A stretch of DNA of 41,265 nucleotides from a virus (lineage: Duplodnaviria; Heunggongvirae; Uroviricota; Caudoviricetes). The stretch is taken from IMG/VR virus record IMGVR_UViG_2521172717_000006. One strand, 5' to 3'. This document shows, piece by piece, positions 1,392-35,024 of the stretch; position 1 is the stretch's first letter, and each line of letters begins with the position of its first letter. A program made the position numbers and the translations under genes. Under the pieces are notes generated by a model that was not told the origin of the DNA, searched no databases, and saw only the letters and a list, made by a program, of their open reading frames with translations.

Positions 1392-2531
1392 ATGGTGTGC
1401 ATTATGATCTTTGAGGCGCAAAGTCTTTATTTATATTTTTTGTCTCTTTTAGCCGTTGTGTTATGTATTACACTATTGACACGATATAACTATTTTTCTC
1501 ACATCAACTTTGCAAGTAACAGGTATTTCTTTATAGACGGATTGCGTGGGATAGCTGCGTTCAGCGTTCTTATTAATCACGGCGCTCATACAATTATTAC
1601 CAATGGAGTTCAGCCCATATTTATAGACTTCACAAAATACTCCATCACAGGGAATATGGGTAGCTTCGGTGTACAGATTTTCTTTTGCATTACAGGATTT
1701 TTGTTCTTTGATAAATTAATAAAAGGAAATAATACATTTGACTGGAATAAATTTTATGTTGCTCGGATAAAAAGACTCGTTCCTCTATATATGCTTACTG
1801 CGCTTTTGGTGGCAATTTTAGCTATTATATTATCCGGCAGTTCAGCAAGGCTTAACTTTGTTGATTTTTCAAGCTTCCTAAATTTTTTTGGGTTTGGATT
1901 TTTGGGCACAGAAATCTTCATTGGCTCTTTTAACGCATCAGGATTAAATGCGGTGATATGGACTCTACCGTATGAATGGAGGTTTTATTTAATTTTCCCT
2001 CTATTATCGATTGCCATCGCAAGCAAGAGATATGGTATGTTTGCCATTTCCGCAGTAATGTTACTTGCGGCAAGAGACTTTATGACAGAATTTGTTTTGT
2101 GGCCATATTTTATAGTTGGCGCCTTAGGTGCATATATATTCAATAAATCTTATGTTAACATTGATGATAAATATTGGATATTCTCATTCATTTCTTTCAT
2201 AGCTATTTTTGTTATCTTCTGCTCTTCCGCAGACAGCTATGGACGAATCAGATTTGCATGCATTTCATTACTATTTATAATGGTACTTATAACTAAACCA
2301 AAAATATTTAAAATAAAATCATTAGTTTATTTAGGTGAGGCAAGTTATAGTCTTTATTTGCTGCATTTGCCTATCATGGCTATAGTAATGAGAACAATAA
2401 ATAATTTCTATAACCTATCGAGCATGTCTACTGTGAATTACACAATTTTGATAGCCTTTATTGCATCTCTGTGTAGCGTTATTTCCTGTATCTGTTTTAA
2501 GAATTTTGAGTGGAGATTCATTAAAAAGTAA
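1392..2531 (+). CDS. Acyltransferase family 3 integral membrane protein, O-antigen acetyltransferase-like (serotype-conversion candidate)
   Basis: FIDGLRGIAAFSVLINH motif near N-terminus typical of acyltransferase_3; multi-pass hydrophobic profile; visibly AT-rich codon usage; track ORF starts at TTG 1377, first ATG is 1392 (1404 also possible). Confidence 0.8.
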   Translation: MVCIMIFEAQSLYLYFLSLLAVVLCITLLTRYNYFSHINFASNRYFFIDGLRGIAAFSVLINHGAHTIITNGVQPIFIDFTKYSITGNMGSFGVQIFFCITGFLFFDKLIKGNNTFDWNKFYVARIKRLVPLYMLTALLVAILAIILSGSSARLNFVDFSSFLNFFGFGFLGTEIFIGSFNASGLNAVIWTLPYEWRFYLIFPLLSIAIASKRYGMFAISAVMLLAARDFMTEFVLWPYFIVGALGAYIFNKSYVNIDDKYWIFSFISFIAIFVIFCSSADSYGRIRFACISLLFIMVLITKPKIFKIKSLVYLGEASYSLYLLHLPIMAIVMRTINNFYNLSSMSTVNYTILIAFIASLCSVISCICFKNFEWRFIKK

Positions 2532-2535
2532 CATT

Positions 2536-2553
2536 GCGGGGCGATGGCCCCGC
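2536..2553. terminator. Bidirectional hairpin terminator between convergent acyltransferase and tailspike genes
   Basis: GCGGGGC-gatg-GCCCCGC stem-loop with T-rich flank on both strands. Confidence 0.55.
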
Positions 2554-2563
2554 TTGATTTCCG

Positions 2564-4762
2564 CTACGCTATATTAAGATTACCATATGTATTGTTTCCA
2601 AGACCATACCATGCCCAGTTTGTTCCTGATGCAGGAGTACCTGCATTGTGAATCATATCGCCTATATTTATCAGCACTTTCCCAGGGTATGTTGTAGTAG
2701 GAGCAGTGTCTATTCCAGCAGACACATCGGCAAAACGCCAACCACAGGAAACCATATCTGCGTTATCTCTAAATTTCTTAATTGAAAACGTGTATCTGTT
2801 TCCTCTATATATCATTCCAGCAAAACTAGGCCAGTCAATAAGTTGATTTACTGGTGAGTTTAAAGTGTTACTAAACTCATTATTTTCAATAACTGGTTCA
2901 TCGATACGCACACCCGAAGTTGATACTAGATATGTAGAATCAAAGTCGTTGTCAGAAATAATTGGAGCATAACCACCAATTTCACAACCTGTATTGCCAT
3001 GAACAAAATATGACTTATTCCCTCGGTATATAGATTTTCTCCATGTGGGCATTGTTACTTTTACGGCATCAGTTCTATCAAACTGGTTGTTTTCAATCAC
3101 AAGTCCATAACAATATGCAGACATCTGAGTTTCAGCATAATCATTTATGGCATAACCACCGCCTTTAAATGTATTTTTTGTTATTTTAATTCCATTGAAT
3201 GATGTTGAGTAGTCATTACTACCATTCCAGATAATTAGAATATGAGATGAAAATGTGCCATCCTCGTTCTGATCCCCAATGCTTATATTGCTATCAATAA
3301 CAACATTCTGCGCTGCAACACCGTTAGATTCACCTCCTATCTCAACGAATATTCCTTGTCCTGTTTTGATGTTATTCGATATAACTGCACCACCAGTCAC
3401 CCCCCAAGGAGTAATCCTAGACTGAATACTTATAGGGCTTATAAAGTGATTTCTTTCTGCAATTAAATATTTTGTTCTTGCTGAGCACGCAAAATCTTCA
3501 CCAAAAGTATGCCATTTTCTGCCTGTTCTGTACGTTTGGCAGTCAATCATCTTAGCAATTCCATTAAGATTTTTAGTGAAAAATGTATAATTTGTTACCA
3601 AATCAGTCCTTACATTGCTAAGAGTTATATCCTCATTTGGTATAGCACCGTCACCATCAGCATCTGCCATTACAAAGATTCTTGCAGCCAATACGTCAAT
3701 ATCATTAATAGATCCACTACTCCCCTCAAGTGCGAAACCAAACCAATTCTCTTGAGGGGTAAACGTGGTATCTGAAGGTCCAGTTGAAAAATTTGTGCAT
3801 GACTGGTTTAACTTTATACCATTAAATTTAAAGTTTTTGCAGTTGAATAAACCAAAGCAAACACGCTCAGCCTCACCATTTCCATCTGTATTTATATTTA
3901 CATCATTATCTGCGTAAACAAATAAATTATTTTTACCATTAATTACAATTGCTGTTTTACGTATAACACCTGCAGAGTCATGATATTGCTGGCTGATTTG
4001 GTAATTAAACTTTATCTCACCGGCGCTAAAACGTATTGCTCTAACACCACCAAATTTTGATATACAAGCGTTAACCGATGCCGTTGAATCATGCACTCCG
4101 TTAATATCATGTCCAGCCCAAACTGTATGTATGCCATCGAGCACACAATTCGAACGGATCCAGCAACCAGAGCCACCACCATCACTCTCACCAGTTCCCG
4201 CAAGGAAAGCAGCGAGCTCAGCATACGAACCATCCCACGGAACTGTGGGGCTAAATATGGTGATACCGTTGTGCTGAGATTTAGGCATGCTGGCATCCCA
4301 GTAAAACTGCCCGCCGCCAAAGTTGGTTCCTGGTACGTATCCAATTACATTTAATGTGTGATTCCCAGCAGGCTCGCTCATTAAGGTATGGATGTCAGGA
4401 ACATTCTCCATTCGCTGGCTAAACTGATCGGGATCATACTTCAGCACATTGGGAAAATAGAACTGCTGCGAACCATACGCATCATATACAGCCATGGAAT
4501 GGCCTTGCACAGTTACGAACTTGGCAATCTGTCCGTTATATACCGGATATCCGGCAGCGTTAATGATTATTGGTTGCGAAACAGGAACGTGAGAGCCGTC
4601 TTCGTTCTCTATATAAACCTGAATCTGGTTTTCTGAATTTACGGGGTCAGCGTCAATTTTACCGATATAAATTTTGCCATTGGCTACGGCTTTAAAAGAA
4701 CGAGCCATAGTGAAGAGTTGCGAAGGCATGCTTACCACAACATTTGCGGTGATATCTGACAT
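2564..4762 (-). CDS. Tailspike protein: P22/HK620-type N-terminal head-binding domain plus divergent beta-helix receptor-binding domain
   Basis: N-terminus [42 protein letters not shown]...[10 protein letters not shown] matches remembered P22 gp9/HK620 tailspike head-binding domain; remainder Gly/Asn/Ser/Thr-rich; start taken at internal ATG (M17 of track ORF) with GGAG RBS. Confidence 0.9.
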
Positions 4763-29291: not shown

Positions 29292-29356
29292 TTCTTATGA
29301 TTTCCATAGGTAAATAATCACTAATACTCATCTTTCGATGAGCGATTAATTAGTTA

Positions 29357-29390
29357 CCGCGTTGTCGGCGGTGCAGATTGATAAAGAGCG
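29357..29390 (-). promoter_or_regulatory. nutR-like site (boxA CGCTCTTTA; boxB hairpin CCGC-cgacaac-GCGG)
   Basis: Read on minus strand between cro stop and cII; order boxA then boxB. Confidence 0.4.
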
Positions 29391-29400
29391 GATCCGCTTA

Positions 29401-29616
29401 TTAAGCGGCTTTGTGTTCCGGCGGGAACACGTCATCAAGACTGACTTTTGCGCCTAACTTGTTTAGGCACGCAACAAGAGCACGGCATGTTTTAAGGTCT
29501 GGGAAGCGACGACCAGATTCCCAATGTCCGATAGCTCCCTGTGTGCATCCAACCGCCTTAGCAAGTGTTGTTTGAGAGATATTCAGTGACTCTCGATATT
29601 TTCGTAGGTTGCTCAT
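29401..29616 (-). CDS. cro: Cro-like HTH repressor, 71 aa
   Basis: Start at M58 of track ORF with GGAGG RBS; HTH segment SQTTLAKAVGCTQGAIGHWESGRR; divergent from cI. Confidence 0.8.
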   Translation of the reverse strand: MSNLRKYRESLNISQTTLAKAVGCTQGAIGHWESGRRFPDLKTCRALVACLNKLGAKVSLDDVFPPEHKAA

Positions 29617-29733
29617 ATGCCCTCCATAGTAACCATGAAACAATAATACGATATGTACTTTTGGAATGCAAACAAAAAATACATCTTGTGCATGGATGGT
29701 TTTAGTACATAGCGTAATAATAAGGATATGAAA
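29617..29733. promoter_or_regulatory. OR operator / pR-pRM region between cro and cI
   Basis: Minus-strand pR candidate (-35 TTGCAT, 17 nt, -10 TATTAT); two 15-bp sites fitting AGTAC-N5-GTACT with one mismatch each at about 29645..29659 and 29704..29718. Confidence 0.55.
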
Positions 29734-30387
29734 ATGAAATGGTATGAACTGGCTAGATCCAGAATGAAAGAGCTCGGCATAACTCAAGAGAAGTTAGCTG
29801 AAGAGCTTGGTATGACGCAGGGTGGAATTGGTCACTGGTTGCGCGGATCTCGTCATCCATCTCTTGACGAGATTGGTGTGGTGTTTAAATACCTTGGTAT
29901 TGATAACGTCTCATTCAACCACGACGGTACATTTTCACCTGCTGGCGAATACTCATCTGCCCCCGTTAAAAAACAATATGAGTACCCTGTTTTTTCTCAT
30001 GTTCAGGCCGGGATGTTCTCGCCTGAGCTTAGAACCTTTACCAAAGGTGATGCGGAGAGATGGGTCAGCACAACCAAAAAAGCCAGTGATTGTGCGTTTT
30101 GGCTTGAAGTTGAAGGTAATTCCATGACCGCACCAACAGGATCCAAGCCAAGCTTTCCTGACGGAATGTTAATTCTCGTTGACCCTGAGCAGGCTGTTGA
30201 GCCAGGAGATTTCTGCATAGCCAGACTTGGCGGTGACGAGTTTACCTTCAAGAAACTGATCAGGGATAGCGGTCAGGTGTTCCTACAACCACTAAACCCG
30301 CAATATCCAATGATCCCATGCAATGATAGCTGTTCCGTAGTAGGGAAAGTTATCGCCAGCCAGTGGCCTGAAGAGACATTTAGTTAA
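29734..30387 (+). CDS. cI: CI repressor: distinct N-terminal HTH domain with lambda-type C-terminal (LexA-like) domain
   Basis: C-terminal region [73 protein letters not shown] matches remembered lambda CI; N-terminal domain differs. Confidence 0.9.
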
Positions 30388-30418
30388 CAGCCTCACCACT
30401 CTAAAACACACAACAATA

Positions 30419-30447
30419 ACCCGACCTTAGCGTCGGGTTTTCTTTTT
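30419..30447 (+). terminator. Rho-independent terminator downstream of cI
   Basis: ACCCGAC-cttagc-GTCGGGT hairpin followed by TTTTCTTTTT. Confidence 0.6.
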
Positions 30448-30512
30448 CCAAAATATAAATCAATAAAATACAAAGTGTTATAAAAAACCAACCACATTTA
30501 GAACATTTTGTA

Positions 30513-30541
30513 TTGACTCAATAAAGTACACATCGTACTAT
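30513..30541 (+). promoter_or_regulatory. pL-like promoter (-35 TTGACT, 17-nt spacer, -10 TACTAT) overlapped by OL operator AGTACacatcGTACT
   Basis: Hexamers and perfect 15-bp palindrome read directly; same half-site as OR candidates. Confidence 0.6.
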
Positions 30542-30587
30542 TTAGCCATCAGCAGGAAGCTGGAAGCCAAACGGAACAGATTGGCAG

Positions 30588-30621
30588 GCTCTTTAACTTC
30601 GATGGGGCGCTGACAAAGCGC
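30588..30621 (+). promoter_or_regulatory. nutL (boxA GCTCTTTAA; boxB GCGCTGACAAAGCGC)
   Basis: boxB hairpin sequence matches remembered P22-type boxB; located between pL and N. Confidence 0.6.
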
Positions 30622-30740
30622 AAACAGATACCAAACGAGATGGGTTTGGCGGTGATGTGAATTGCAGCTGCAACGACAGCAACCAGAAGATCAGCACCTG
30701 GCGCATCACCACCAAAGCCATTTCACATGAGGAAAATATC

Positions 30741-31049
30741 ATGACGGTAATTGTGTACGGAAAATCAACATTTGCAGGAAATGCCAAAACTCGCCGTCAT
30801 GAGCGGCGCAGAAAGCTGGCTATCGAGCGTGATGCTATATGCAACATCATCGATTCGATCTTCGGCACAGACAGTGAGGAACCTGTTCAGGAAGCCCCGA
30901 GAAAGCGTTTAAGCATTTCTGAAAAAGCAATATCACTCGGCATCATTAGCAAATCAAATACAGATGCGAATAGCGGAAGCGTTTGTTTGCCTGAAGTCGC
31001 ACTGTATGCTGCTGGTTACAGAAGGCAAAAACTAATTACAGCGAGGTAA
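30741..31049 (+). CDS. N: Antiterminator N (P22 gene 24-like)
   Basis: MTVIVYGKSTFAGNAKTRRHERRRKLAIERD arginine-rich motif matches remembered P22 gp24; start at M29 of track ORF. Confidence 0.85.
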   Translation: MTVIVYGKSTFAGNAKTRRHERRRKLAIERDAICNIIDSIFGTDSEEPVQEAPRKRLSISEKAISLGIISKSNTDANSGSVCLPEVALYAAGYRRQKLITAR

Positions 31050-31051
31050 AA

Positions 31052-31330
31052 ATGAAGCCTAGCATAACAATCAAGCCAGCGAGAGATAATATCAGGAACC
31101 GCCGCAGAGAGGCCAGGAAGGCAGAAAGAGCAGAGAAGGAAAACAAGAGCCGGGAGGAGAGAAAGGCAGAGATTTTGGAAAAAGGAGGATTGGCTGCCGT
31201 GAGGGGTGAAAAAGCAGCTGAATTAGCAGTAGCTCACGAAAAGACAGAGATTGACAATAATTCTGGTGGAGATGCAATGTTTAAAGTTGTCAATCACGCC
31301 CATCAACGAAACCCCAAAAAGAAATGGTAA
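31052..31330 (+). CDS. Hypothetical highly charged protein, 92 aa
   Basis: K/R/E-rich helical-looking sequence; first gene after N. Confidence 0.5.
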   Translation: MKPSITIKPARDNIRNRRREARKAERAEKENKSREERKAEILEKGGLAAVRGEKAAELAVAHEKTEIDNNSGGDAMFKVVNHAHQRNPKKKW

Positions 31331-31333
31331 TCA

Positions 31334-31357
31334 ACCCGTCCAAGACGGGTTTTTTAT
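31334..31357 (+). terminator. Rho-independent terminator (tL1-like)
   Basis: ACCCGTC-caa-GACGGGT hairpin followed by TTTTTTAT. Confidence 0.6.
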
Positions 31358-31387
31358 TGCAAGCAAACCACTTATTTGAGATGAGAT

Positions 31388-31753
31388 ATGGAAGAACAAG
31401 CAAACAAGATTCTCGTAGAACTACTGCAAAAAGCCAGTAATGGAATAGACGCGGCTGTTTCATTTAGCCAGGCACAGATTCCTGATGTCATCCATCAGCT
31501 TTTGATGTGGCACGCCGTATCATCAGCTGGAATTCAGGCTATCTGTGTATTGGTGATTATAGCGTGTGTTTATCTGATGATTTTTGCATGGAATAAAGGA
31601 GATGATGCAGATATTGTTCTTTTATCACTACTTGTCACATCAGGAATAGAGATTACTTCTATTGTTGTTTTCTTCAATTATTTCGACTGGCTGAAAATTT
31701 GGCTTGCTCCAAAACTTTACCTTATCGAATATGCAGCATCATTGGTTAAGTAA
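31388..31753 (+). CDS. Small integral membrane protein (two predicted TM segments), 121 aa
   Basis: Hydrophobic stretches AGIQAICVLVIIACVYLMIFAW and IVLLSLLVTSGIEITSIVVFF; AT-rich; position of superinfection-exclusion genes in lambdoid phages. Confidence 0.6.
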   Translation: MEEQANKILVELLQKASNGIDAAVSFSQAQIPDVIHQLLMWHAVSSAGIQAICVLVIIACVYLMIFAWNKGDDADIVLLSLLVTSGIEITSIVVFFNYFDWLKIWLAPKLYLIEYAASLVK

Positions 31754-31757
31754 TCTC

Positions 31758-31785
31758 AGGCCGCATAGTCGGCCTTTATTTTTGG
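31758..31785 (+). terminator. Rho-independent terminator
   Basis: AGGCCG-catagt-CGGCCT hairpin followed by TTATTTTT. Confidence 0.55.
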
Positions 31786-31805
31786 CATAAACAACAGAGG
31801 CGAAG

Positions 31806-32135
31806 ATGAAAGAGTTTAATGGCACTCCTGGTAAATGGAGTTTTTCTCACAGCAGCGCAAGTGACGCAAGCGTAGCTTGCATAGAAATTAATTCATCTGA
31901 GTCACTGCATGAAATTGCATATCTCCAGAGCACTCCTTCAATAATTGGAGGATACAATCAGACTTCTTTCGATAAAACAATCGCTAATGCCCATCTAATA
32001 GCGGCAGCACCAGACCTTTTAAATGCCCTGCAAGCGATGCTAAACAAGGCATACAAGCAAAACTGGAACGACCATTATCCTGATGAAGTATCGAAAGCAC
32101 AGTCAGCAATTAGCAAAGCTCTTGGAGATGAGTAA
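31806..32135 (+). CDS. Hypothetical protein, 109 aa
   Basis: ATG with AGAGG RBS; AT-rich; no recognisable motif. Confidence 0.5.
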   Translation: MKEFNGTPGKWSFSHSSASDASVACIEINSSESLHEIAYLQSTPSIIGGYNQTSFDKTIANAHLIAAAPDLLNALQAMLNKAYKQNWNDHYPDEVSKAQSAISKALGDE

Positions 32136-32323
32136 TGAAAGTAAAAATAACTGCTTCCAATACCAGTTTTGTTAGTGTTGGTGATATTACAGAAGTAATA
32201 ACAAACCATGATGGAACACAAGTTATGTGGTCTGATTTTTGTAAAAGATATGAGCGAGTCACTTGGTGTAAACTCGTATGGGGAGTCGAATACGAAGAAT
32301 TACCTGAAATGCATGACGAATAA
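32135..32323 (+). CDS. Hypothetical protein, 62 aa, translationally coupled to upstream gene
   Basis: Start overlaps upstream stop (TAATG); Trp/Cys-containing small protein. Confidence 0.5.
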   Translation: MKVKITASNTSFVSVGDITEVITNHDGTQVMWSDFCKRYERVTWCKLVWGVEYEELPEMHDE

Positions 32324-32418
32324 GCACTGTGTATTCATTCCAACGAGTGAATACACGGAGCAATGTCGCTCGTAACTAAACAGGAGCCGACTTGTTCTGA
32401 TTATTGGAAATCTTCTTT

Positions 32419-32444
32419 GCCCTCCAGTGTGAGGGCCTTTTTAT
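32419..32444 (+). terminator. Rho-independent terminator
   Basis: GCCCTC-cagtgt-GAGGGC hairpin followed by CTTTTTAT. Confidence 0.5.
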
Positions 32445-32508
32445 ATGCATACCAATAACGCTTCACTTGAGGCGTTTTCGTTATGCAATCAAATAGAAGG
32501 AGCATCCT

Positions 32509-32679
32509 ATGCAACAGTTCGCTATTGCAGGGGCGGCATCGGTTCGCCCTTTCAACCCGATTTTATCGGTGCAGCATTCACGAAAAAACATTTTAACCGG
32601 AGCAGACTTTAAACAACCAAAAATGAAAAGTTTGCTCGAAAAGCTTTGGGATATTTTGAAACAACAAGGCCGTCCATGA
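32509..32679 (+). CDS. cIII: CIII-like protease inhibitor, 56 aa
   Basis: MQQFAIAG... and LLEKLWDILKQQGRP resemble remembered lambda CIII (MQYAIAG...LIDILNQPGVP); GAAGGAG RBS; not in ORF track (under 60 aa). Confidence 0.55.
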   Translation: MQQFAIAGAASVRPFNPILSVQHSRKNILTGADFKQPKMKSLLEKLWDILKQQGRP

Positions 32680-32834
32680 GTTTTACAGATAACTGGTCAG
32701 ACGAAGAATTCATTCGTCAGATGAAAGAATTAATCGGTAACGAAGGAGATATTCATGTCACTTGCAACCACAGTGAAGGAGAGCAAGTTACAGAGACGCA
32801 TGTACACGCAGAAAGCTCTCTGGTATCGCCATAA
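32676..32834 (+). CDS. Hypothetical acidic protein, 52 aa
   Basis: ATG overlapping cIII stop (ATGA); M11 of track ORF. Confidence 0.4.
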   Translation: MSFTDNWSDEEFIRQMKELIGNEGDIHVTCNHSEGEQVTETHVHAESSLVSP

Positions 32835-32933
32835 TGGTGACCGCGAAGGAATGCGGGTATGCCTTAATTTGTCCCGAGTCGAAGTATTAAATCAGCGTTA
32901 TTTCCTTGGGCCGTGTCCATTCTGAGGTGAATT

Positions 32934-33641
32934 ATGGATTTGAATAAATTCGATGAGCCATTCAGCCCTGAAGATATCGAATGGCGAATACAGCAAAGCG
33001 GTAAAACACGCGATGGCAAAGTGTGGGCTATGGTGCTGGCTTATGTCACGAACCGGGCAATCATGAAGCGCCTGGACGATGTTTGCGGCAAAGCAGGATG
33101 GCGCAATGAATACCGCGATATTCCCAACAACGGCGGCGTTGAATGCGGCATATCAATAAAGATTGATTCCGAATGGGTAACCAAATGGGATGCTGCTGAA
33201 AACACGCAGGTAGAAGCCGTCAAAGGTGGTCGTTCCGGTGCAATGAAGCGCGCTGCCGTTCAGTGGGGAATCGGTCGGTATCTGTATAACCTTGAGGAAG
33301 GTTTCGCACAAACATCTCTCGATAAAAAGCAGGGGTGGCACAGGGCAAAACTGAAGGATGGGACAGGATTTTACTGGCTCCCTCCATCGCTGCCGGGATG
33401 GGCAATCCCAGCATCAGATAACAAACCATCACCAGAAAATACCAACCAGAAATCTCCATCGGTTGACTGCGAACAAATCCTGAAAGACTTCAGCGATTAT
33501 GCAGCGACAGAAACTGACAAGAAAAAACTCATCGAGCGTTATCAGCATGACTGGCAATTAATGGCTGGAAACGAGGAGGCGCAGGCTAAATGCGTTCAGG
33601 TAATGAACATCAGAGTTAACGAGCTAAAACAGGCGGCATAA
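32934..33641 (+). CDS. Single-strand annealing recombinase (Rad52/Sak-like core; C-terminal region resembling P22 Erf C-terminus)
   Basis: AVQWGIGRYLYNL motif typical of Rad52-family annealases; C-terminal ...YAATETDKKKLIERYQHDWQL...CVQVMNIRVNELKQAA recalled as Erf-like; position upstream of ssb. Confidence 0.7.
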   Translation: MDLNKFDEPFSPEDIEWRIQQSGKTRDGKVWAMVLAYVTNRAIMKRLDDVCGKAGWRNEYRDIPNNGGVECGISIKIDSEWVTKWDAAENTQVEAVKGGRSGAMKRAAVQWGIGRYLYNLEEGFAQTSLDKKQGWHRAKLKDGTGFYWLPPSLPGWAIPASDNKPSPENTNQKSPSVDCEQILKDFSDYAATETDKKKLIERYQHDWQLMAGNEEAQAKCVQVMNIRVNELKQAA

Positions 33642-34730: not shown

Positions 34731-35024
34731 ATGCCAGCGCCTTTGTATGGTGCGGATGACGCGCGCCGCTGTTCCGGCAATTCCGTATCGGAGGTGCTGG
34801 ATAAATTCAGAAAAAACTACGATCGGATAATGTCGCTACCGCAGGAAACGAAAGAGGAAAAGGAATTTCGCCATTGTATATGGCTTGCAGAGAAAGAAGA
34901 ACGCGAGCGAATTTACCAGACATCAATCCGACCATTCCGCAAAGCCACATATACCCACTTCCCTGAAATTGACCCGCGCCTGCGTAATTACCGCTCACGC
35001 TATGGCGCTATCAGTAATGACTGA
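34731..35024 (+). CDS. Hypothetical protein, 97 aa
   Basis: ATG with GGAGA RBS. Confidence 0.5.

Follow-up and report, generated by a model that had tools for sequence, protein, structure and literature searches.

A predicted Nun-family protein encoded behind N in a mosaic accessory segment within the pL operon of a lambdoid Escherichia coli W prophage

Work on the Nun protein of phage HK022 goes back decades and has treated it as one of a kind. HK022 has no N antiterminator; nun takes its place in the pL operon downstream of nutL, and the protein reportedly excludes lambda via expression from the repressed prophage. In the cryo-electron microscopy structure, Nun residues N97, H98 and H100 touch the RNA, the template strand and the beta' rudder, residues Q101-S109 touch beta', RNA and DNA, and the pocket of W108 includes beta' D329 (PMC5386594). 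The classical alleles abolishing arrest are H98A, K106A/K107A and W108A (PMC5386594, PMC4496710). According to a 2015 review, the exclusion specificity of HK022 Nun is unique and no other function of it is known (PMC4496710). We analysed a window of 41,265 nucleotides (nt) (IMG/VR virus record IMGVR_UViG_2521172717_000006; all positions refer to this window unless another locus is named), which is identical (100%) to a lambdoid prophage of Escherichia coli W (NC_017635.1). Between N and cIII the window contains four open reading frames (ORFs), here called genes 1 to 4 in the direction of pL transcription. The first of them encodes a predicted member of the Nun family.

The product of gene 1 (92 amino acids, aa) matches the PHROGs family phrog_5632, 'Nun-like transcription termination factor', over residues 1-92 (3.4e-29). 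Among solved structures, its one significant hit is to chain N of PDB 6alg, HK022 Nun in the elongation complex of E. coli RNA polymerase (RNAP) (8.8e-5). The match is centred on the final 17 residues, MFKVVNHAHQRNPKKKW in gene 1 and MHRVVNHAHQRNPNKKWS in HK022 Nun; the C-terminal RNAP-arrest tail, as predicted by homology, spans residues 74-92 (DAMFKVVNHAHQRNPKKKW). Residues N81, H82, H84, Q85, R86, N87, K90, K91 and W92 of gene 1 are aligned with N97, H98, H100, Q101, R102, N103, K106, K107 and W108 of Nun, so that every residue with demonstrated contacts to the RNA-DNA hybrid, the beta' rudder or the W108 pocket is retained. The tail residues stand at the extreme C terminus, W92 being the last residue. 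The description of this protein as highly charged in the initial annotation is borne out by its composition (24 lysines and arginines, 15 aspartates and glutamates, isoelectric point 10.2).

The 3' coding end and the following terminator AACCCG..CGGGTT(T)n are conserved as DNA in HK022 nun, the window and three other loci. Hence the first of the three hairpins that follow genes 1, 2 and 4 belongs to the nun module. The coding part of the aligned nun 3' ends contains synonymous differences, and thus selection acts on the protein.

Both gene 1 and HK022 nun encode small basic proteins with, in the N-terminal part, an arginine-rich motif (ARM; putative in gene 1) and the C-terminal tail VVNHAHQRNPxKKW, and both lie in the pL operon downstream of nutL with the same terminator behind. 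Gene 1 occupies a promoter-proximal position, starting 2 nt past the end of N and ending ahead of the first terminator, and is therefore part of the immediate-early pL transcript. However, it encodes 92 aa, compared to 109-112 aa in HK022 Nun, and only the last ~40 residues can be aligned (45% identity). The ARM classes differ, RDNIRNRRREARK in gene 1 and SRDRRRIARWEKRIAY in HK022, and gene 1 has no aromatic residue at the position of Y39 in Nun and W18 in lambda N. Finally, gene 1 sits behind a functional N rather than replacing it, a terminator parts it from cI, and its predicted target is not lambda.

The best DNA match of the region is Klebsiella phage phiKp_30. There, the gene after N encodes an unrelated Cys/His-rich protein of 97 aa, and it was set aside as it is no relative of Nun.

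A family profile was built from gene 1, three of its relatives, HK022 Nun and two Hafnia phage proteins. The search retrieved 98 proteins from Escherichia, Enterobacter, Hafnia, Yersinia, Citrobacter, Klebsiella, Raoultella, Pantoea, Cronobacter, Providencia, Proteus and Photorhabdus. The tail D-[AVI]-M-x-[RK]-V-V-N-H-A-H-Q-R-x-P-x-K-K-W(-S) is almost invariant in 93 of the 98 proteins, and in the 85 of these that fit a stricter pattern for the whole tail, tryptophan ends the chain or has a single residue behind it, with one exception. The N-terminal halves, on the other hand, carry at least ten ARM classes on this one tail. These include the HK022 type SRDRRRIARWEKRIAY, a lambda-N type passing Pfam N36 (PF11438, 1.5e-11), the phi21-like SKSRYK, types with GRRRLRR, and the class of the window, (A/G)RDN(S/A)RNRRRE.R. 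Judging from these sequences, the predicted Nun-like family exceeds its published picture in both size and modularity. PHROGs already holds the label 'Nun-like'. In the literature searched, outside subscription journals, we came across no account of N-Nun tandems or of relatives of Nun bearing other ARMs, and an earlier description is possible.

The 92-aa class follows N at a distance of 2-8 nt in four independent prophage backgrounds: the window, two Enterobacter-type contigs (loci L005 and L009) and an E. coli contig (L006). The contigs L005 and L009 have an N of the H-19B/933W type with the boxB AGGCTGAAAAGCCT. The order N, Nun-like gene is also seen in Klebsiella (L019), Providencia (L020) and Hafnia phage Pocitis76, the latter having N and two Nun-like genes. 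The isolated Escherichia phage vB_EcoP_Kapi1 (MT813197.1; locus L021, positions 1280-1926) has a phi21-type N with the boxB CTCTCAACCTAACCGTTGAGA and, 2 nt further on, the canonical HK022 Nun allele. The latter is the lambda-excluding allele and its target is the lambda nut site, and so, for an experimentally characterised allele, the pairing of an own N with a Nun directed against a different nut type is already on record. Both Kapi1 genes are annotated as 'hypothetical protein'. In Pocitis76 (OL512804.1; locus L004, positions 2018-3060), a tRNA-Gly lies between nutL and N, and both Nun-like genes, one with a lambda-N36-type ARM and the other with KGRRRLRRLE, are annotated as 'transcriptional regulator'. 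Behind an H-19B-type N in Klebsiella sp. P1CD1 (CP033631.1; locus L019, positions 2132-3298) come, in this order, a Nun-like gene, a terminator, a further nut-like stretch containing a tRNA-like sequence, and another N-family gene (84 aa).

The ARM-like stretch of gene 1 occupies residues ~10-30 (RDNIRNRRREARKAERAEK). Residues 1-60 were aligned for 11 proteins of the 92-aa class, and the resulting profile was compared by HMMER with 1.84 billion representative proteins. Beyond its own class, it retrieves genuine N proteins with E values from 1e-10 to 1e-4; the retrieved N proteins that were tested pass Pfam N_peptide, and they end in CLPEVALYAAGYR..TAR or ..GRQKxKLxSKPLI. The nearest of them bear LADDNARNRRRARRQAQREQ, a sequence that N of HK620 and of CUS-3 shares with N of HK140, HK630, mEp213, mEpX2, ECP1 and some Shiga toxin (Stx) phages. 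Counted manually, ARDNIRNRRREARKAERAE of gene 1 is identical to HK620 N in 10 of 18 positions. Other proteins of the class come closer, P0052 having 48% identity to HK620 N over 44 residues. With the ARM half as query, tblastn against phages yielded nothing at E<=10, presumably owing to the masking of low-complexity sequence.

The N-terminal half of the 92-aa class is thus related at the profile level to N of the HK620/CUS-3/phi21 clade (PF25694), and the two share the start MxxIIxK, the ARM DN(A/S)RNRRR and the stretch LERK/LARK..L.G. The difference is in the C-terminal part, where gene 1 has no RNAP-binding region of N and carries the Nun arrest tail instead. The expected outcome is therefore arrest, not antitermination. 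Pfam N_peptide (PF25694) gave no match to gene 1 at E<=1, and the phrog_271 match is weak (0.003) and confined to the N-terminal part.

By sequence comparison, the putative ARM of gene 1 resembles that of HK620/CUS-3/HK140-type N and does not match the P22-type N or the boxB of its own prophage. The nutL boxB of HK620 is TCCCGCCGAAATGCGGGA, whereas the boxBs of both nut sites in the window carry GACAA loops (that of nutR, on the other strand, is CCGCCGACAACGCGG). There is no HK620-type boxB in the window.

One possibility is that gene 1 acts on its own phage, as a brake on N antitermination at the own nut sites that tunes early transcription or favours lysogeny. Gene 1 is co-transcribed and, given the 2-nt spacing, almost translationally coupled with N, and a manual comparison shows the pattern RR-E-R in both its ARM and that of P22 N, 5 of 14 positions being identical. 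One Nun-like ARM in Pocitis76 and that of the Klebsiella prophage L019 also resemble an N ARM of the same element. However, gene 1 and its own N show no detectable alignment. The ARM of the 92-aa class is nearly constant, although the partner is a P22-type N in the window and an H-19B-type N in three other prophages; that one ARM accompanies two different N and boxB types argues against tuning to the nut site of the partner. Further, the class profile finds HK620- and phi21-type N, not P22- or H-19B-type N, and HK022 nun mutants grow and lysogenise normally (PMC4496710). Such a brake therefore seems unlikely to us.

We find it fairly probable, on the other hand, that the N-cIII interval is a mosaic accessory segment in which gene 1 encodes a Nun-family factor arresting rivals with HK620-type nut sites, and genes 2-4 are separate modules. 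Gene 1 would be produced together with N as an immediate-early product of pL. Its ARM would tether it, with Nus factors, to HK620-type boxB RNA on the nascent pL and pR transcripts of a competitor. The tail would then wedge into the RNAP elongation complex and block translocation, as HK022 Nun does. Early transcription of competing lambdoid phages, superinfecting or co-induced, would be arrested, and the own N-modified transcription would proceed.

Several observations weigh against this scheme. Pairwise BLASTP of gene 1 and HK620 N is not significant (E 14), the compared segments being short and biased, and therefore the ARM is assigned at the level of the class, by the class profile and the 10/18 ARM match. 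The ARMs are all arginine-rich and partly alike, and past the ARM no other protein of the class diverges as far as that of the window. In the tail, H93 and R94 of HK022 Nun correspond to F77 and K78, and S109 is missing. RNA binding, arrest and exclusion by gene 1 are predicted from sequence only. In Pocitis76, the second Nun-like ARM KGRRRLRRLE resembles KQRCKLRRLE of the own N, and in the Klebsiella prophage L019 the ARM of the second N, RRYLKRGELMAKRRAE, closely matches RRYKQRGELMAKRKAE of the Nun-like protein of the same prophage. The latter arrangement is either a mosaic scar or a Nun-like protein able to target the nut site of its own element. In view of these two resemblances, it is not a safe rule that Nun-like proteins are always directed at foreign nut sites. 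Lastly, expression of gene 1 from a repressed prophage is doubtful, given that cI and pL are parted by a terminator-like hairpin and that no promoter-like match was detected within N. In a lysogen, this tIMM-like hairpin would curb read-through from cI transcription into N and gene 1; there is no comparable hairpin between cI and nun in HK022. Alternatively, gene 1 may be active when phages co-infect or prophages are co-induced.

Gene 1 might also be a general shut-off factor that, produced abundantly from pL in early lytic growth, arrests host and foreign elongation complexes non-specifically, with N protecting the own complexes by occupying an overlapping site on RNAP. Overproduction of Nun is toxic to E. 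coli and nut sites are not needed in vitro (PMC4496710); the dissociation constant for a non-specific elongation complex is ~300 nM (PMC5386594). The placement of gene 1 in the immediate-early transcript of a strong promoter, with a terminator parting it from the repressor transcript, would also suit this role. However, the diversified ARMs that mirror specific N classes would be hard to explain if RNA tethering were irrelevant, and we consider this role improbable.

Returning to arrest directed at rival nut sites, a more general, tentative proposal makes Nun the first known representative of a modular system of 'anti-N' exclusion. ARMs of rival N proteins may have been repeatedly grafted onto one invariant RNAP-jamming tail, and the chimeras placed behind the own N in lambdoid phages across Enterobacterales. 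The E. coli W allele would then have a new specificity, against HK620/CUS-3-type nut sites, and would serve as an immediate-early weapon in co-infection or co-induction, rather than solely in prophage-state immunity. If at least ten ARM classes mirror the classes of N, usually from a position behind N, the diversity of nut sites and N could be read as an arms race with mimics, and the target range of each Nun-like allele could be predicted from its sequence. The family would also be a natural set of RNA-tethered, programmable RNAP arrest factors. Identification of gene 1 corrects the annotation 'hypothetical protein' in 32 of 5426 complete E. coli genomes, E. coli W included, that contain its DNA.

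The coordinates of the features are given in Table 1. The order of genes and signals in the pL direction is cI, hairpin, pL, nutL, N, the four ORFs, cIII, small ORFs of the kil region, Erf and SSB. All four ORFs predicted in the initial annotation are present on the + strand between N and cIII, and the same four coding sequences are found in RefSeq E. coli W, all as 'hypothetical protein'. The RefSeq label of the cIII homologue in E. coli W is also 'hypothetical protein', and N is unlabelled in some assemblies.

Table 1. Features of the cI-cIII region of the window (+, direction of pL transcription; bp, base pairs)
Feature	Position	Strand	Details
cI	29728-30387		
Terminator-like hairpin between cI and pL (tIMM-like)	30418-30439	+	8-bp stem, 5 GC pairs, U-rich tail, -12.4 kcal/mol, z -4.3
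pL-like promoter	30513-30541	+	TTGACT, 17 nt, TACTAT; position agrees with the annotated pL of HK620
nutL	30588-30621	+	boxA GCTCTTTAA (30588-30596); P22-type boxB GCGCTGACAAAGCGC (30607-30621), GACAA loop
N antiterminator, P22 gp24 type	30741-31049	+	Pfam N_peptide 1.9e-38; phrog_271 2e-35; ARM GNAKTRRHERRRKLAIERD
Gene 1, predicted Nun family, 92 aa	31052-31330	+	phrog_5632, PDB 6alg_N
Intrinsic terminator after gene 1, tL1-equivalent	31333-31358 (hairpin 31333-31351)	+	AACCCGTCCAAGACGGGTT + U6, -14 kcal/mol, z -3.3
Gene 2, 121 aa, two predicted transmembrane helices	31388-31753	+	phrog_3054
Weaker terminator-like hairpin after gene 2	31758-31783 (hairpin 31758-31775)	+	AGGCCG..CGGCCT + UUUAUUUUU, U-rich tail, -9.7 kcal/mol, z -1.7
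Gene 3, 109 aa	31806-32135	+	PF27050 (Phage_P22_Y8K6), phrog_1273
Gene 4, 62 aa	32135-32323	+	phrog_10407; start overlaps gene 3 stop
Perfect 14-bp hairpin straight after gene 4	32324-32361 (stem 32327-32358)	+	-21.7 kcal/mol, z -7.4, no U-tract
Two tandem U-tract hairpins upstream of cIII (tL2-like)	32419-32436 and 32457-32476	+	pair -27.6 kcal/mol, z -5.4
cIII	32509-32679		phrog_550, 6e-23

The interval between N and cIII is a mosaic accessory segment of the pL operon, consisting of three independent modules rather than one system. It occupies the same position as the accessory segments of other lambdoid pL operons (ral/sieB/git in lambda, ral/17 in P22, hkaQ/hkaP in HK620), which also consist of small genes amid tL terminators overridden by N and turn over rapidly between otherwise identical prophages. 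Unlike these, it contains the nun-like gene and members of phrog_3054, PF27050 and phrog_10407 in place of ral, sieB and kil: none of the four proteins matches Ral (PF11058), Lambda_Kil (PF06301) or SieB at E<=1. These assignments, together with phrog_5632 and 6alg_N for gene 1, replace the earlier description of the four genes as belonging to no recognised family, although scans of all four proteins against Pfam, NCBIfam and PADLOC gave nothing usable. The segment had also been called AT-rich, which holds only modestly (GC content 0.409 versus 0.473 in the window, the 8th percentile of windows of equal size); gene 1, at 0.459, stands outside this bias.

The suggestion that this is a variable cargo site is confirmed by comparison across prophages, which have different gene sets beside the same cI and N. 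At least 80% of the region 30400-32950 is present in five of the 5426 complete E. coli genomes. Alternative sets next to identical cI and N are N, nun-like, gene 2 and a 44/62 aa pair; N, nun-like, ral, a 96/62 aa pair and a gene of 322 aa; and N with two unrelated small genes. The W prophage region is also found at 100% identity in NZ_CP026085.1 and NZ_CM135829.1 ('E. coli DH5alpha'), which have W-like chromosomes of ~4.83 Mb and are probably mislabelled.

The initial annotation placed three hairpin terminators in the island. Hairpins do follow genes 1, 2 and 4, but the third has no U-tract and thus is not a classical terminator, and the two U-tract hairpins upstream of cIII had been overlooked. 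The hairpin behind gene 4 may mark a mosaic boundary or serve in RNA processing; no Rfam family matches it, and the Rfam scan of 29300-33000 returned nothing noteworthy at E<1. Nor are terminators unusual within an antiterminated operon, as had been thought: they are normal in N-antiterminated pL operons, and the HK620 record annotates tL1, tL2A, tL2B and tL2C in the same interval.

The prediction of two transmembrane helices in gene 2 agrees with hydrophobic segments at residues ~41-68 and 76-99 (Kyte-Doolittle 19-residue means up to 2.8). Gene 2 likely encodes an early inner-membrane protein in the N-in/C-in orientation. It belongs to phrog_3054 (1.4e-46), an uncharacterised phage family, and has homologues in 181 records of both temperate and virulent phages. 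Those of P22-like Salmonella and E. coli phages are 99% identical, and those at 30-40% identity come from virulent N4-like, phi92-like, Vibrio, Pseudomonas and Ralstonia jumbo phages. In virulent phages the homologues sit in early or DNA-metabolism neighbourhoods and not in lysis cassettes, for which reason a holin function was rejected. A single-sequence AlphaFold2 model of gene 2 (predicted local distance difference test, pLDDT, 53) was set aside.

It had been proposed that gene 2 mediates superinfection exclusion and that genes 3 and 4 could be a two-component module, for instance a toxin-antitoxin pair. Gene 2 does occupy the position of sieB in relatives (in SPLA1b, sieB is followed by a gene 2 homologue), has two transmembrane helices, and gives faint, non-significant matches to the PADLOC '2TM effector' (E 0.11-0.15). 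However, it has no similarity to SieB (PF14163) or any PADLOC model, and its family also occurs beside DNA-metabolism genes in virulent N4-like, phi92-like, Vibrio and jumbo phages. Superinfection exclusion is plausibly encoded at this locus, but by gene 1 and by a mechanism other than the one proposed.

Genes 3 and 4 overlap by one base, as annotated, in the sequence TAATG (GAGTAATGAAA at 32131-32141). Such overlaps of start and stop codons are common among small early phage genes. Neither protein has toxin or antitoxin homology in Pfam, NCBIfam or PADLOC, and none of genes 2-4 has a match in these library scans. Moreover, co-occurrence is not obligatory, since relatives of gene 3 are found without gene 4, gene 4 has three alternative upstream genes, and RB49-like virulent phages carry its domain within a larger protein. 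The model with an exclusion protein and a toxin-antitoxin pair is accordingly quite improbable in our view; genes 3 and 4 are a pair of small soluble early proteins from widespread uncharacterised phage families.

Gene 3 is assigned to PF27050 by the precomputed Pfam annotation of proteins 98-99% identical to it and of all 120 listed homologues; the Pfam set used to scan the four proteins did not include this family. It contains the conserved motif LIAAAPDLL. The AlphaFold2 model (pLDDT 88.6) predicts three beta strands and a helical hairpin, and fold comparison of this model gave no informative match. Gene 4 (phrog_10407) also matches the C-terminal part of the 144-aa phrog_16117.

The genes overlapping the start of gene 4 in different prophages encode 109, 96 and 44 aa. 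All three (32100-32137 in the window and the junctions in loci L011 and L012) end in ...(S/N)(K/A)ALGD(E/K) followed by the overlapping ATG. The ALGD(E/K) junction looks like a conserved linker for module exchange. Since gene 4 stands behind different partners with this common end, the site is probably a recombination junction rather than the border of an obligate pair.

Recombination of a different kind is seen in protein P0235, where the first ~45 residues of a phi21-type N are fused to the C-terminal part of the anti-RecBCD protein Abc2 (PF11043, 6e-21; compared with 34731-35024 of the window). This fusion looks like a deletion spanning the whole pL early region of some prophage.

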